In this document: one piece after another, positions 17,367-21,788 of the stretch
Position numbering within the stretch: the stretch's first letter is position 1
Layout: every line of letters starts with the position of its first letter
From: Desulfuromonadales bacterium
GTDB lineage: Bacteria > Desulfobacterota > Desulfuromonadia > Desulfuromonadales > JAAXQG01
Assembly (NCBI GenBank): GCA_012974445.1
Contig: JAAXQG010000289.1
Location: 1 to 54,200 of the forward strand
Direction of reading: 5' to 3'
Length of the DNA stretch: 54,200 nt
The notes under the pieces: model-generated
Told to the model about the DNA's origin: nothing
The model's database searches: none
The model's input: the letters and a program-made list of their open reading frames with translations, nothing else
Made by a program: the position numbers and the translations under genes

Positions 17367-17439
17367 CGATCATGCCTCTACAGGTAAAATGTGCTGGAGC
17401 AGCTTCGCGTCAACGCTGGTAACATGCCAGCAAGCTTAA

Positions 17440-17456
17440 TGCTATTTGCATACCAG
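17440..17456 (-). promoter_or_regulatory. sigma54 -24/-12 promoter for the motA-fliL...flgJ segment
   Basis: Minus strand CTGGTATGCAAATAGCA (GG-N10-GC). A second GG-N10-GC, TGGCATGTTACCAGCG, lies at 17429-17414. Confidence 0.7.
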
Positions 17457-17570
17457 CCGAATAAAAACTTTGACTGCTATAATTCAGTTTTCCAGAAGAG
17501 CGCCTAGGATAAAGACCTTCGCCCGCTGATTCAAGCCTCAAGTCGCGTACGGACCTGAATTTTCCAATGA

Positions 17571-17610
17571 ACACAAAAAGAGGCCGCTTAATGGCGACCT
17601 CTTTTTGTGT
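17571..17610 (-). terminator. Rho-independent terminator after flgE
   Basis: Minus strand ACACAAAAAGAGGTCGC-CATTAA-GCGGCCTCTTTTTGTGT, a long stem with U-tract. Confidence 0.85.
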
Positions 17611-17628: not shown

Positions 17629-19173
17629 TTAACGTTTGAGGTTGATCAACTCACCGAGCATTTCGTCGGTGGTGGTGATGACCCGCGAATTGGCCTGGAA
17701 TCCTCGCTGCGTCGTGATCATCTTGACGAATTCCTGGGCCAGATCGACATTGGACTGCTCAAGGGAGTTGGTGAAGACCTTACCCATGGAGGAACCGGCG
17801 GTGCCGACACGGGCAGCCCCGGAATTCCCGGTCTCGGCATACATGTTCCCCCCGACGCCTTCAAGCCCACCGGGGTTGGAAAACTTCGCCAGAGCCACGC
17901 GACCGACCTTGATGTTCTCGCCGTTGGAGTAGTTCCCGATAATGGTCCCCTCATTGTCGATGCTGACCTTGACCAGCTCCCCCGCACCGTAGCCGTCCTG
18001 GTCCTGACCGATGACCACCGAGGCACTGGTGTTCTGGGTGGTGTTGAAATTGAGATTGGAGGCAAGAGTGGCATCGGCGCCATTGTTCCAGTTAAGAGCA
18101 TTGGCAAAGGTCGTTCCGGTAGCACCACTTTGAAGAACACCACTTGAATCAAAAGATACGGCCCCTCGCCCCACAACCATAACTGTCGGTTGCGATGCCG
18201 TAGTCGCCATAGCAGCCGTCAGAGTATCAGGCCCCGTATCACCCGCTCCTTGAGCAGTCACGGCGGCGCCATGAGCGACCGTGGCCTCATCCACAACGGC
18301 CTGAGCAACTTCAACCGCATAGTCCAGGTCTGGGTCTGCAGGGACTGCAGCGGCCGCTGCGGCGGTGGCAGCCCCCAAGGTGATGTTTGCATTTGTTAGC
18401 AAAGTATTCAGATCAGTCACGACGGTGGCTCCAGTGGTCGTGTCGGCAGCGGCAATGTCTGCCCGCAACGTGGCGAAAGGAGCGAGTTCTGATCGAGTCG
18501 CGACAGTATTCCAGTCCCACTGATTGGTGGAGGTCTTGGTGAAATAGGTCGTGAGCAGATGGGTGTTGCCCAGAGAATCGAACATATCCAGGGAGGCGGC
18601 GTAGTTGGATGTTCCCAGGGGATCGGCGGGATCAAACACAGGGCCGACAGCTGAGTTGGCATCCAGGTTGGTGGTCAGGGTCACATTCGCCGTAGGATTG
18701 GCGGAGACCTGAACGGTATTGTCGACCCGGATGTCACTGGGCGCAGCAATGGACATGGTCCCGTCAGTCAGAAACTGTTTCCCCTGCACCCTGAGCCCCT
18801 CGGCATTCACCATAAAGCCCTGATTGTCAAAGCGGAAGGCGCCAGCCCTTGTATATCGGACCTCGGCGGTGCCGGGGACACCGATCATGAAGAAACTCTC
18901 CCCCTCGATGGCCAAGTCGGTGGCGGACTCTGTACTCTCGAAAGTCCCCTGACTGAAGATGTTGTCGACGGTGGAGAGCTGGGTTCCCCGGCCGACCTGC
19001 GATGTCCCCCCCGAACCGGAGACGGTACTGGAGAGAATGTCGGAGAAGACCGTTCTGGCTCCCTTGAAACCGACGGTGTTGGTGTTGGCAATATTGTTAC
19101 CGATAACGCTCATAGCGTTGCCGTTAGTGTTCAGGCCGCTGATGCCTGAATAAAGTGCACTTGAAATTCCCAT
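17629..19173 (-). CDS. flgE: Flagellar hook protein with ~100-aa Ala/Thr-rich insertion
   Basis: IGNNIANTNTVGFK, YTRAGAF, LEQSNVDLAQEFVKMITTQRGFQANSR; 514 aa. Confidence 0.97.
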   Translation of the reverse strand: MGISSALYSGISGLNTNGNAMSVIGNNIANTNTVGFKGARTVFSDILSSTVSGSGGTSQVGRGTQLSTVDNIFSQGTFESTESATDLAIEGESFFMIGVPGTAEVRYTRAGAFRFDNQGFMVNAEGLRVQGKQFLTDGTMSIAAPSDIRVDNTVQVSANPTANVTLTTNLDANSAVGPVFDPADPLGTSNYAASLDMFDSLGNTHLLTTYFTKTSTNQWDWNTVATRSELAPFATLRADIAAADTTTGATVVTDLNTLLTNANITLGAATAAAAAAVPADPDLDYAVEVAQAVVDEATVAHGAAVTAQGAGDTGPDTLTAAMATTASQPTVMVVGRGAVSFDSSGVLQSGATGTTFANALNWNNGADATLASNLNFNTTQNTSASVVIGQDQDGYGAGELVKVSIDNEGTIIGNYSNGENIKVGRVALAKFSNPGGLEGVGGNMYAETGNSGAARVGTAGSSMGKVFTNSLEQSNVDLAQEFVKMITTQRGFQANSRVITTTDEMLGELINLKR

Positions 19174-19191
19174 TTTTTCCTCCGCGTTATT

Positions 19192-19245
19192 GGGCCACCT
19201 CTGTCGGTCGGTGACCCGCGAACCCCCTGCTGTGAGGACCGGTTC
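19192..19245 (-). ncRNA. Candidate cis-acting two-hairpin RNA in the flgE leader
   Basis: Minus strand GAACC-GG-TCCT-CACAGC-AGGG-GGTTC, then GGGTCACC-GACCGACAGA-GGTGGCCC, then SD GGAGG and the flgE ATG. No U-tract. Confidence 0.55.
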
Positions 19246-19247
19246 GG

Positions 19248-19634
19248 TTAGGCGATTACTGCGCTGTCAATATTTGTAAAAACGTTCCCCTGCATGCTGT
19301 TTTTGTCGACCAGGGTCACCACGGTGTTGTTCTTCACGCTGACCACCATGGCGGTCTGATCAAGCAGCACGAGCGAATCCCTTCCCCCTTTGGCACCTGC
19401 AGCCTGGACCGCATTTTCCAGGCGGATCATATCCCCCTCGGAAAACTTGATGCCTCGGCTCTCCATGCGGGAAATCGCGTGCTTGGAAAACTGCAGCGAT
19501 GGTCCCTTGAGCTGGGCATCAAAGACCTTCTCGAAAGAGGGCCCCTGAGGTGAAACGCGCGAAGGAGGCCTGCTGATGGCTCCGGGTCCGGAAGGGGGCG
19601 TTAGGCGGGGATAGAGATGGACTGAATCTGTCAT
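19248..19634 (-). CDS. Flagellar operon protein of TIGR02530 / Flagellar_put type
   Basis: Between flgD and flgE; FSKHAISRMESRGI, KGGRDSLVL, VVSVKNNTVVT, NVFTNIDSAVI. Confidence 0.9.
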   Translation of the reverse strand: MTDSVHLYPRLTPPSGPGAISRPPSRVSPQGPSFEKVFDAQLKGPSLQFSKHAISRMESRGIKFSEGDMIRLENAVQAAGAKGGRDSLVLLDQTAMVVSVKNNTVVTLVDKNSMQGNVFTNIDSAVIA

Positions 19635-19636
19635 CG

Positions 19637-20296
19637 CTAAATCTCCCTGACGCTGCCGATGTCGAACATGTTGAAGGATCCGGCATTGGTCACCAGAATG
19701 CTTCCCGTAGGGCCGAGATCCACACCGGTCACGTTTCCGCGAACCAGAGAGGGCAACCCAAGAGCAGCTTCACCACTGCCTGCTGCGGCACTGAGACTAT
19801 AGCGTCCGGCAGGCAGTGGATTACCGGCCGAGTCCAGACCGTCCCAGTTCACGAAATGATCTCCCGGCTCGACTTCCTCAACCGAAACGCTGGCAACCAG
19901 CTCGCCCTGCTCGTCGTAAACATGCAGTGCGACATCCTTCACCGCCTGGTTCACACGATAGCCCAGCTCAACCGGACCGTCTCCCAGCTCGAAACTACCT
20001 CCTTCACTGACGACCTCTTTGCCGATCAGGTTCAGGGCGGAGAGTCGCTCGATATCCACGCTGCTCGCGGCCATCTTCTCCAGATTGGCGTTCATGGTGA
20101 ATTGCTGCTCCAGAGAGCTGAACTGGGCCAGCTGTGCGGTGAATTCAGTGGGATCCTCAGGGCTAAGAGGGTCCTGGTTCTGAAGCTGAGTCACCAGCAG
20201 GGTCAGGAAATCATCCTTGCCCATAGCCGTATTACCACCCAGAGCACTACTCAAACTCGGACTTGAACTCGAATTAACTGCTGAAACTTCGGACAT
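19637..20296 (-). CDS. flgD: Hook capping protein
   Basis: DDFLTLLVTQLQNQDPLSP, AQLAQFSSLEQ, FlgD_Ig WDG motif. Confidence 0.97.
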   Translation of the reverse strand: MSEVSAVNSSSSPSLSSALGGNTAMGKDDFLTLLVTQLQNQDPLSPEDPTEFTAQLAQFSSLEQQFTMNANLEKMAASSVDIERLSALNLIGKEVVSEGGSFELGDGPVELGYRVNQAVKDVALHVYDEQGELVASVSVEEVEPGDHFVNWDGLDSAGNPLPAGRYSLSAAAGSGEAALGLPSLVRGNVTGVDLGPTGSILVTNAGSFNMFDIGSVREI

Positions 20297-20318: not shown

Positions 20319-21788
20319 TCAGACTCTGAGACTGATACTTTTTTGCATCGACGCCTCGCCGCCGGAAGTCGGCACAACGGGCAAAGCACCGGCAACCTCT
20401 ACTGAAGCAGCTGAGCCCTTCCGGCCCCAACCACCAGCCGAGCGCTTGTGATTCTGCTCAAAACGGCCATCACGACCATCTTGCCGAGCATCCGAACTGA
20501 CCTGAACATTATCAAGCTTGACTCCCTGCTGCTCGAAAGCCTCACGAAGCCTGGGCAGATGCCGTTCCAACACATCCTGAATCTGCTGACTCTGAGCATG
20601 CAAATGGAGTTTTACTCCATCCTTTTCAAAGACCAGCTGCACCTTCACATTGCCCAACTCCTCAGGATAGAGATCCATCTTGACGGTACTGGACCCTCCA
20701 GATCGCTGATAGTTGAAACGACCCACGACCTGATCGACAATTTCCGCCTCGGGAATCACCTGCCCCGTGGACAGTTGAAACAACCCACTGCTGCTGTTCT
20801 GGTTTGCAACCGATGCAGGCGCCGGTGATTGAGCGGCTGAAACAACGGTGGTGAGAACAGGAGCCTCTGCCCCCTTGGGAGCAGCTTCAAGCACTGGAGC
20901 GCCTCCAGCGCCGGCGGAAGCAACCTGTGGCTTCTGTTCCCCTGCCTTAAGATCCATAATTTTAAGGGGCTCAACAGACTCTTCCGATTCCGTATCCAGC
21001 ACCAGTCGTTGGGAAGCTTGCTGCTGGGAGGAATCCTCCCGGCGCCCCTCTTTACCGCCAGCTTCGAGAATCTGTCCCCGAGACCCATGCCCCTGCTCAA
21101 GATCGACGGCCACTGCACCTTGCCCGGGAGCCCGAAGGGGTTCCGGCTTTACCAGTGACGCAGCTCCTTCTGCTTGCCGCAAAAGGCCTCCCTCAACAGA
21201 ATCATCCGTTGCCATTGCTGCGTTCAGTGCTGCAGCGGCAATATTCTGGGTGTCTTCGGAGACAGAAACATCCTCGAGAGCTGAGGTACTATCCATCTCC
21301 TGTCCGGTCGAGATTGGGACAGTAACAGCGGCTGCGACTACGGCGGACTGCAACGACGGAATTTTGACAAATGGATCAATTTCACCCGAAGAGTCCCCAG
21401 CTGCCTCCAGAGAAAGATCGTCCACAGAGGAATTATCCTGCCCTTCGAGGGACAACAGCTTCACCAAATTCTGTAGTACATCCTCCCCCTCGCCGAGCAC
21501 ATCCTGCCCGTCAAAAAACTGAGCCTGCAGTTGCTCCAGGACATTGCCCTTCGTAAGTTCCTGCCCCTGAAGAGGCTGCTGGATCGCAGAAAGATCGAGC
21601 TGCGAAATCTCTCGCAACTGCTCATCAAGCCCCGGCTGAATCTGCCCATCAAGCCCCGGTTGAATCTGCCCGGATGACAGTTGCTGAAACAGCTGCGCAA
21701 AAATAGGCTGATCAGCGCCCTGAGTTGCTGACTGTGAAGTTGTGGCCGGCACGGAGCTAACCGGTATAGCAATTGGTAGCATTTCCAT
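20319..21788 (-). CDS. fliK: Hook-length control protein
   Basis: Low-complexity acidic N-terminus; C-terminal Flg_hook domain (LYPEELGNV...LPRLREAFEQQG). Confidence 0.92.
   Translation of the reverse strand: MEMLPIAIPVSSVPATTSQSATQGADQPIFAQLFQQLSSGQIQPGLDGQIQPGLDEQLREISQLDLSAIQQPLQGQELTKGNVLEQLQAQFFDGQDVLGEGEDVLQNLVKLLSLEGQDNSSVDDLSLEAAGDSSGEIDPFVKIPSLQSAVVAAAVTVPISTGQEMDSTSALEDVSVSEDTQNIAAAALNAAMATDDSVEGGLLRQAEGAASLVKPEPLRAPGQGAVAVDLEQGHGSRGQILEAGGKEGRREDSSQQQASQRLVLDTESEESVEPLKIMDLKAGEQKPQVASAGAGGAPVLEAAPKGAEAPVLTTVVSAAQSPAPASVANQNSSSGLFQLSTGQVIPEAEIVDQVVGRFNYQRSGGSSTVKMDLYPEELGNVKVQLVFEKDGVKLHLHAQSQQIQDVLERHLPRLREAFEQQGVKLDNVQVSSDARQDGRDGRFEQNHKRSAGGWGRKGSAASVEVAGALPVVPTSGGEASMQKSISLRV
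21623..21670. repeat. 24-bp tandem duplication inside fliK (GQIQPGLD x2)
   Basis: CATCAAGCCCCGGCTGAATCTGCC / CATCAAGCCCCGGTTGAATCTGCC, one mismatch. Confidence 0.9.

Follow-up and report, generated by a model that had tools for sequence, protein, structure and literature searches.

The flgE leader of the window

The 54,200-nt stretch examined here (the window; positions 1 to 54,200 of the forward strand of contig JAAXQG010000289.1, assembly GCA_012974445.1) comes from a Desulfuromonadales bacterium and contains a flagellar gene cluster in which a gene of the TIGR02530 (flg_new) family lies directly ahead of flgE, the gene for the flagellar hook protein, with a two-hairpin RNA element in the gap between them. 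This element is conserved across phyla, is tied to the presence of the TIGR02530 gene, and may act together with the TIGR02530 protein as a module controlling flgE after transcription. All features of the locus discussed below are on the minus strand. The TIGR02530 gene (19248-19634) encodes a 128-aa protein that scores 116 bits against NCBIfam TIGR02530 (cut-off 83.2), which makes it a full family member, and 45.2 bits against Pfam PF12611, Flagellar_put (cut-off 21.1, E 7.5e-12, residues 104-127). It is flanked upstream by flgD, the hook cap gene (19637-20296; Pfam FlgD, FlgD_ig and FLgD_tudor), and downstream by flgE (17629-19173, 514 aa; Pfam Flg_bb_rod, LlgE_F_G_D1, FlgE_D2 and Flg_bbr_C). 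The gap between TIGR02530 and flgE (19174-19247) is exactly 74 nt long and, as proposed in an initial annotation made from the sequence alone, is nearly filled by two hairpins, H1 and H2, which constitute its minimum-free-energy fold.

H1 (19219-19246, GAACC-GG-UCCU...AGGG-GGUUC) comprises an outer stem, an invariant GG bulge (19240-19239), an inner stem of the CCUC/GAGG type and a variable loop, and H2 (19192-19217, GGGUCACC-GACCGACAGA-GGUGGCCC) has an 8-bp stem and a 10-nt loop, GACCGACAGA (19209-19200), with the consensus GAnnGAnnGA. Together they make up the element in the flgE leader (19191-19247), described by 56 model positions in the covariance models R1 and R2. The flgE ribosome-binding site, as read from the sequence, consists of a Shine-Dalgarno (SD) GGAGG at 19183-19179 and an ATG at 19173-19171; GGAGG begins 8 nt past H2, in agreement with the spacing first annotated, and no U-run is present 3' of H2, where the sequence is AAUAACGCGGAGG. 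R1 scores 72.4 bits and R2 66.3 bits at the element, which is the sole strong match of both models in the window; the runner-up for R2, with filters off, reaches 9.6 bits. A U-G pair in the window copy of the H2 stem is compatible with the sense strand only.

The predicted fold of the gap has a free energy of -25.7 kcal/mol (z -1.0), with 33 of 200 shuffles equally stable, and the fold of the gap plus its flanks has a z of -0.11. Because this single sequence folds no better than its shuffles, the case that the element exceeds chance rests on comparison among genomes. Two further structures were considered and rejected. A pseudoknot between the H2 loop and the bulge strand of H1 relies on a GACCG/CGGUC complementarity that, as judged by eye, is limited to Desulfuromonadales and not retained in Geobacter-type and Bacillota copies. 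A K-turn in the H1 internal loop would require letters other than those present, judging from the general rules for this motif and not from computation.

Conservation and covariation of the RNA element

In a sample of 41 genomes of the same order, the TIGR02530 gene was found in 16 and flgE is the next gene in all of them; each of the 16 intervening gaps (72-297 nt) holds both hairpins in register. A wider collection of 80 loci, with groups taken from record titles, spans Desulfuromonadales, Geobacteraceae, Bdellovibrio relatives, many Bacillota, Armatimonadota, Solirubrobacteraceae, Bacteroidota, Planctomycetota, Poribacteria and Sericytochromatia, and in 79 of these flgE follows the TIGR02530 gene, the single exception being a contig end. 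Model R1, built on the 16 same-order copies and run on all 96 loci, matches 76 of them from several phyla at E <= 0.1, with one match per locus. In the resulting alignment of 76 sequences, 92.6% of cells are paired, compared with 37-58% for slid partners, and both sides change in 15 of the 19 pairs; the covariation score of 0.523 (versus 0.04-0.13) was reached by none of 500 shuffles. The second model, R2, matches 86 of the 100 loci supplied at E <= 0.05. Its 14 non-matches are L033, L050, L051, L054, L065, L073, L075, L086, L096 and five Bacilli loci, the last of which are picked up by a local search run with the filters off. For the 86 R2 copies, the share of paired cells is 90.4%, and changes on both sides occur in 17 of the 19 pairs; in the H2 stem, they occur in all eight pairs, in the 76-copy as well as the 86-copy alignment. 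These alignments were fitted to the model and are hence biased in its favor; the same structure is evident from the slid controls and from the raw sequences.

The pattern of variation differs between the parts of the element. The H1 outer stem covaries, with G-C pairs swapped for A-U pairs, and the GG bulge is 100% conserved in the 86 diverse copies. The inner stem is mostly CCUC/GAGG, with C12-G49 constant in 86/86 copies and the neighbouring pair in 79/86. The sequence of the H1 loop is free, and Bacteroidota and Armatimonadota have whole extra stems inserted there. The H2 stem is 6-8 bp long across loci and covaries freely, and its GA-nn-GA-nn-GA loop is strongly constrained, the three successive repeats having G in 88%, 99% and 100% of copies and A in 100%, 96% and 92%. 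The letter 3' of the GG bulge varies among the copies (A 48%, U 42%, C 10%). Throughout the element, G-U pairs fit the sense strand only.

These results leave very little room for the view that the hairpins are a chance occurrence, a terminator or a protein-binding palindrome acting at the DNA level. The unexceptional single-sequence fold speaks for this view, which is contradicted by covariation in which the G-U pairs fit one strand, by conservation across phyla and by the lack of a U-tract after H2. The element is almost certainly a functional structured RNA. The cross-phylum covariance analysis suggested in the initial annotation thus returned strong covariation, and the similar hairpins to which it pointed in Firmicutes flagellar operons are indeed found after this gene in Bacillota and Bacilli loci.

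Conserved letters in a bulge and a loop, set among covarying stems, would also be expected of ligand pockets or ribozyme cores, and a position inside an operon would suit RNA processing, so that a small riboswitch or self-cleaving RNA of a new class was considered. Several observations make this quite improbable: no Rfam 15 family was found on the element at E <= 10, whether in the window copy or in those of 13 diverse loci; by eye, the H2 loop shows no consistent complementarity to H1; H2 is dispensable in some lineages; there is no terminator; and the ribosome-binding site is not consistently sequestered. Over 90 leaders, the predicted probability that the SD is unpaired is intermediate and inconsistent (median 0.415; below 0.3 in 27/90 and above 0.7 in 17/90), and sequestration of the ribosome-binding site by the element receives no consistent support from these accessibility predictions.

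Co-occurrence of the element with the TIGR02530 gene

In the same-order sample, the 16 genomes that carry the gene are the same 16 that carry the element, with one copy each. The FlgE D2 domain occurs in 18 of these 41 genomes, and the two beyond the gene carriers, G009 and G039, have neither the TIGR02530 gene nor the element in searches with filters off. The two genomes have an unexplained flgD-flgE gap of 255 or 199 nt (L097 2256-2510; L098 1557-1755). Among 151 genomes of Bacilli, with an element threshold of E <= 0.01, the element was found in 46, the TIGR02530 gene in 69 and FlgD in 111. The gene is present in every one of the 46 element genomes and has the element immediately downstream, and no element was found in the 82 genomes that lack the gene, 42 of which have FlgD. 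As the genome-scale search has a sensitivity of ~70% of true sites, this absence is strong rather than absolute. At genome scale, 23 Bacilli genomes had the gene and no element; 20 of these were re-examined, and all 20 hold the element locally at 24-41 bits. In a sample of 151 genomes from the window's own phylum, all five gene carriers have the element (four at genome scale and the fifth locally, at 42.6 bits), and it is absent from the 146 genomes without the gene. Element and TIGR02530 gene go together across phyla, in keeping with the association that the initial annotation anticipated.

Copies away from the hook locus occur in the class of a Thermoanaerobacterales-like genome (Bacillota, 30 genomes), in which the element is present in 24 genomes, with two copies in eight, and the gene in 22. 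Nine of the off-hook copies (L119-L121, L123-L126, L139 and L140) are located between flgF-like and flgG-like rod genes, right past the stop codon of the first gene, and all nine are in genomes with TIGR02530 elsewhere. In these flgG-site copies the H1 inner stem is mostly ACUG/CAGA instead of CCUC/GAGG, and the GG bulge and the H2 loop are retained. The rod-site variant loci, among them L119 (1804-1859), also include L135 and L136. A same-class genome, G251, has an orphan element (L134 1013-1066, minus strand, 43.3 bits) placed 10 nt past the stop of an open reading frame for an acidic EF-hand-like protein and convergent with a methyltransferase-like gene; it precedes no gene, and could be a 3'-untranslated copy or a free decoy RNA.

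The TIGR02530 protein

The peptide on which the initial annotation drew, FSKHAISRMESRGI, is present in the window protein. The string VVSVKNNTVVT was mistaken there for the end of the protein: it corresponds to residues 97-107, and the 21 further residues that follow, LVDKNSMQGNVFTNIDSAVIA, hold the best-conserved block of the family. Residues S50, H52, A53, R56, R60, I62, K82, G83, T107 and V118-S124 are invariant in 34 proteins from several phyla, and the invariant C-terminal block NVFTNIDS (PF12611) lies outside the RelE-like core. An AlphaFold2 model based on the 34-protein alignment has a predicted local distance difference test score (pLDDT) of 86-94 for residues 50-128, the first ~45 residues being disordered. 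Its predicted secondary structure consists of a short strand, two helices, three strands and a final strand, and places a predicted RelE/ParE-like alpha/beta domain at about residues 45-116. A structure search with VIA-align 2 against 48,161 PDB representatives returned RelE/ParE-superfamily members at all of ranks 1-15 (Z 4.6-5.8, rmsd 2.8-5.1 A, 64-82 residues aligned), including ParE1, HigB2, PfiT, RelE, YafQ, YoeB and the RelE-like domain of Cami1, and a first, weaker structure model gave a similar top list. A sequence search of the PDB with family profiles found no meaningful match, and no usable match was found among ESM Atlas look-alikes.

The initial annotation had assigned the protein to a DUF4258-type pattern, related to colicin E5 and RelE-like RNases. 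The signature residues bear this out: the H, A, R and T that never vary among five true DUF4258 proteins of related genomes are invariant in TIGR02530 as well (H52, A53, R60 and T107; I62 too), and an hhalign comparison of TIGR02530 with these five proteins gives a probability of 81.8% (E 1.1e-5) over the first helix. The DUF4258 profile (PF14076) is matched by 27 of the 34 family members at E < 1, with a best E of 7.4e-4, but all of these scores are below its gathering score. The guess of an RNase-like fold is thus supported, at a modest level, by the predicted structure. DUF4258 has been listed in the RelE/ParE superfamily with function unknown (Gerdes 2025, PMC11980606) and placed in the colicin-like BECR branch (bioRxiv 10.64898/2026.08.28.747851); the string "flagell" has no occurrence in the available text of either source.

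No function for TIGR02530 was found in the literature searched, in which few subscription journals are covered. The giant phage G is reported to encode a TIGR02530-family protein, gp136, and the sections of that preprint which treat the family note only its position between flgD and flgE (bioRxiv 10.1101/2024.12.16.628780). It is odd to find this flagellar, toxin-like protein in a phage, and the phage copy may offer a clue to what TIGR02530 does.

Transcription of the locus and neighboring genes

The exact sequence of this locus is found in three metatranscriptome runs from one marine-sediment sample, and two of their contigs (19074-19333 and 19148-19302) bridge the junction of gene, element and flgE. 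Such RNA-library contigs give no ends, strand or level, could include DNA carry-over and are uninformative where a stretch is uncovered; together with the lack of a terminator, these two fit read-through of the gap. An intrinsic terminator in the gap was rejected, as there is no U-tract after H2, a terminator scan of the gap was empty, and the RNA-library contigs bridge it; the initial annotation was therefore correct in not taking the hairpins for a terminator. A scan found no sigma-70 promoter in or near the gap, and inspection by eye of the longer gaps of relatives showed no sigma-54 or sigma-28 consensus.

The flagellar cluster has the order fliI, fliJ, an MgtE_N-like gene, fliK (20319-21788), flgD, the TIGR02530 gene, flgE, motA, motB, fliL and fliM. 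A strong hairpin with a stem of ~17 bp is located ~20 nt past the flgE stop codon (17571-17610), with a free energy of -29.4 kcal/mol (z -7.3) that was matched by none of 200 shuffles. A simple terminator scan gave no call at this hairpin; its arms contain runs of A and of U. In appearance it is a terminator that ends a fliI-to-flgE unit, and if so, flgE would be the last gene of its transcription unit and its message would have structure at both ends. The 262-nt gap between flgE and motA contains the sigma-54-like words TGGTAT-N5-TAGC and TGGCAT-N5-CAGC (17370-17470, by eye), which hints at a separate transcription unit beginning with motA.

A candidate protein-RNA module in the control of flgE

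The distance from the H1 core to the flgE start codon has a median of 74 nt (interquartile range 70-84) and falls within 60-95 nt in 76 of 91 loci. The distance from the element to the upstream stop codon has a median of 15 nt and a range of 0-228 nt, and is <= 5 nt in 33/91 loci. Because its distance to the flgE start is the steadier of the two, and because the flgG copies occur without the gene alongside, the element behaves like a leader that belongs to the gene downstream. A trans-acting factor would be compatible with this behavior, which is no proof of one. The main rival to a protein-RNA module has the RNA acting alone, by stabilizing the flgE message against 5' decay, insulating it from the upstream cistron or keeping the ribosome-binding site open. 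The linkage to TIGR02530 would then reflect neighbors in one ancestral operon type, and the protein would act elsewhere, for instance in hook assembly or export. The tight spacing to flgE and the loose spacing to the upstream gene suit this explanation, as do the flgG copies that stand without the gene alongside, the strong 3' hairpin that closes flgE in the window and, in the protein, a domain that is not basic and a best-conserved block outside its RelE-like core. Specific recognition, as opposed to bare stability, is indicated by the invariant unpaired letters and the near-fixed inner-stem pairs, and an RNA working by itself would not be expected to be missing from all 42 gene-less Bacilli genomes with flgD, as well as from the two same-order flgE genomes that lack the gene. 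On balance we consider it unlikely that the RNA acts alone, although this explanation ranks ahead of another binding factor, a riboswitch or ribozyme, and chance, in that order.

A trans-acting factor other than TIGR02530 could instead read the conserved letters. It might be CsrA/FliW, Hfq, ribosomal protein S1 or the ribosome, FlgE in a feedback role, or a part of the export apparatus coupling translation to secretion. The control of flagellin leaders by CsrA-FliW offers a precedent (PMC4894983). Roughly half of the copies read GGA at the bulge, and GGA is also present in the ribosome-binding site, and the genes preceded by the element, flgE and flgG, both encode high-copy export substrates of the rod/hook class. 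Against this, GGA is not conserved, since U or C often follows the GG, and no conserved GGA is found in the H1 or H2 loop; a CsrA-bound leader signature was rejected on these grounds. Nor would factors of such wide distribution explain an element confined to the TIGR02530 genomes in which it was found. Another trans-acting factor is accordingly regarded as improbable.

The reading that we favor, tentatively and at somewhat less than an even chance, is that the element and the TIGR02530 protein form a module controlling flgE after transcription. The unpaired letters of the element are invariant or nearly so (GG 100%, loop GA letters 88-100%) and for this reason call for a specific partner, and because the distribution of the element follows that of the gene, it points to TIGR02530 as this partner; even the nine flgG-site copies that are unlinked to the gene are all in genomes that carry it. 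As part of this reading, TIGR02530 would be a domesticated member of the RelE/ParE superfamily, with a BECR fold of DUF4258-like type, as suggested by the structure model. Its predicted fold is like that of RNase toxins, and it has conserved His, Arg and Lys residues (H52, R56, R60 and K82 in the 34 proteins). In such a scheme, the operon would be transcribed through the TIGR02530-flgE gap, and the protein would recognize the GG bulge of H1 and the GAnnGAnnGA loop of H2, bind the element and possibly cut nearby. The outcome would be an amount of FlgE set relative to the products of the low-copy upstream genes, either through a flgE message bearing a 5' hairpin cap and a 3' terminator hairpin or through altered translation initiation. 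The analysis establishes the structure of the RNA, its conservation, its tie to the gene and the likeness of the protein to this superfamily in predicted fold and signature residues; binding, cleavage and the direction of the effect are what we infer.

A number of observations weigh against this module. The gene and its primary element are adjacent, so shared inheritance and linkage explain part of their co-occurrence. Two assemblies, G214 and G217, have a rod-site copy and no detectable TIGR02530 gene; both are also without flgD, meaning that they lack the entire hook locus. The Solirubrobacteraceae loci and several Bdellovibrio loci keep the gene but have an H2 that is absent or replaced, and in the sequences of these groups no consistent pattern connects its loss with changes in the protein. 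L065, a Poribacteria locus with the gene present, has no R2 match and no H1 core. The two RNA-library contigs show an uncut junction, and by their nature cannot reveal RNA ends. Regarding the protein, the structural scores are modest, as Z values below 8 may reflect merely a common arrangement, and Foldseek, the method named in the initial annotation, gave a best E of 0.21, with HigB2 heading its list. The DUF4258 match of the window protein itself is 14.7 bits against a gathering score of 25 (E 0.038, residues 49-65), and the hhalign match spans 17 columns only. RelE toxins are strongly basic; the folded domain of TIGR02530 is near neutral, with about 9 K/R and 8 D/E by manual count, and NVFTNIDS, its best-conserved block, falls outside the part that resembles RelE.

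A bolder version, which we regard as doubtful, has TIGR02530 as a toxin-derived BECR/RelE endoribonuclease that has become a dedicated maturation factor for flagellar mRNA, cutting the polycistronic message at or beside the element. Cutting might require translation to terminate at the upstream stop codon, which is within 5 nt of the element in the loci noted above. It would leave hairpin-capped, long-lived flgE messages (in some lineages flgG messages), and the stoichiometry of the axial proteins would in this way be set post-transcriptionally.

The hook protein is present in ~100 copies per flagellum, and its gene shares a long operon with genes needed in few copies, which raises the question of how this ratio is set outside enteric models. 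A leader RNA that spans phyla and precedes flgE, and in places flgG, provides a concrete handle on it, and would also be a widespread addition to RNA catalogues. If the protein-RNA module is real, it would provide a first function for TIGR02530/PF12611 and add to the cases in which a toxin fold has been domesticated, here to control a housekeeping gene. Mutational tests are straightforward for so short an element, in which the letters that matter (GG in the bulge, the GA repeats in the loop) have been identified.

Comparison with known RNA families and regulatory systems

Among known structured RNAs, the Termite-flg motif (RF01729) also adjoins flagellar genes. Like the element described here it is a candidate cis-regulatory structured RNA, but its model has 106 positions and the motif is known from the termite hind gut, whereas the present element has 56 positions and occurs in several phyla. 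In five element-carrying genomes, the RF01729 model found nothing at the flgE leader and only weak matches elsewhere (<= 19.6 bits against a gathering score of 40). Identity of the two was rejected, with no RF01729 match at the leader, in the window or in the 13 loci at E <= 10. Termite-flg was listed as a cis-regulatory candidate from the termite hind gut by Weinberg et al. 2010 (PMC2864571). The element is undescribed in the literature searched, which included the main texts of Weinberg 2010 and 2017 and of two 2007 CMfinder papers, the supplements, which hold most motif details, lying outside this search.

The rpsF leader, which is bound by S6:S18 and is autoregulatory (PMC3895269), offers a parallel. 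Both are short, covarying mRNA structures that span phyla and display conserved unpaired letters, with the presumed binder encoded in the operon. They differ in that the presumed binder here has a toxin-like fold and is not a ribosomal protein, its binding being putative, and in that the RNA is positioned downstream of the binder's gene, before a different gene. The proposed module likewise resembles CsrA-FliW, which is established on flagellin leaders (PMC4894983), as both would control a high-copy flagellar axial protein post-transcriptionally through leader hairpins. Here, however, the target is flgE or flgG instead of flagellin, GGA is neither conserved nor displayed in a loop, and the distribution follows TIGR02530.

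As a protein, TIGR02530 shares with DUF4258 and RelE/ParE a helix motif, H-A-x6-R-x-I, followed later by a VVTA strand, and a predicted alpha-alpha-beta-beta-beta core for which the nearest solved folds are RelE, ParE, HigB, YafQ and YoeB. Unlike DUF4258, it scores below the cut-off of that family, and has a disordered N-terminus and the invariant C-terminal PF12611 block. Unlike RelE/ParE toxins, it is near neutral, is a fixed part of flagellar operons and has no antitoxin neighbor: the genes adjoining it in the window are flgD and flgE, and flgE is likewise the next gene in the 79 loci of the wider collection.

Type III ToxIN and Cas6 with CRISPR repeats are examples of an endoribonuclease with a cognate RNA, and the papBA and puf operons are examples of segmental mRNA stabilization. 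The processing proposed here would be akin to that of papBA and puf in leaving a hairpin-protected message for an abundant product. As in the ToxIN and Cas6 pairs, a small protein with a predicted nuclease fold is encoded beside the structured RNA that it would recognize; in contrast to them, cleavage is putative, and the RNA is a single copy with no array, placed downstream of the protein gene.

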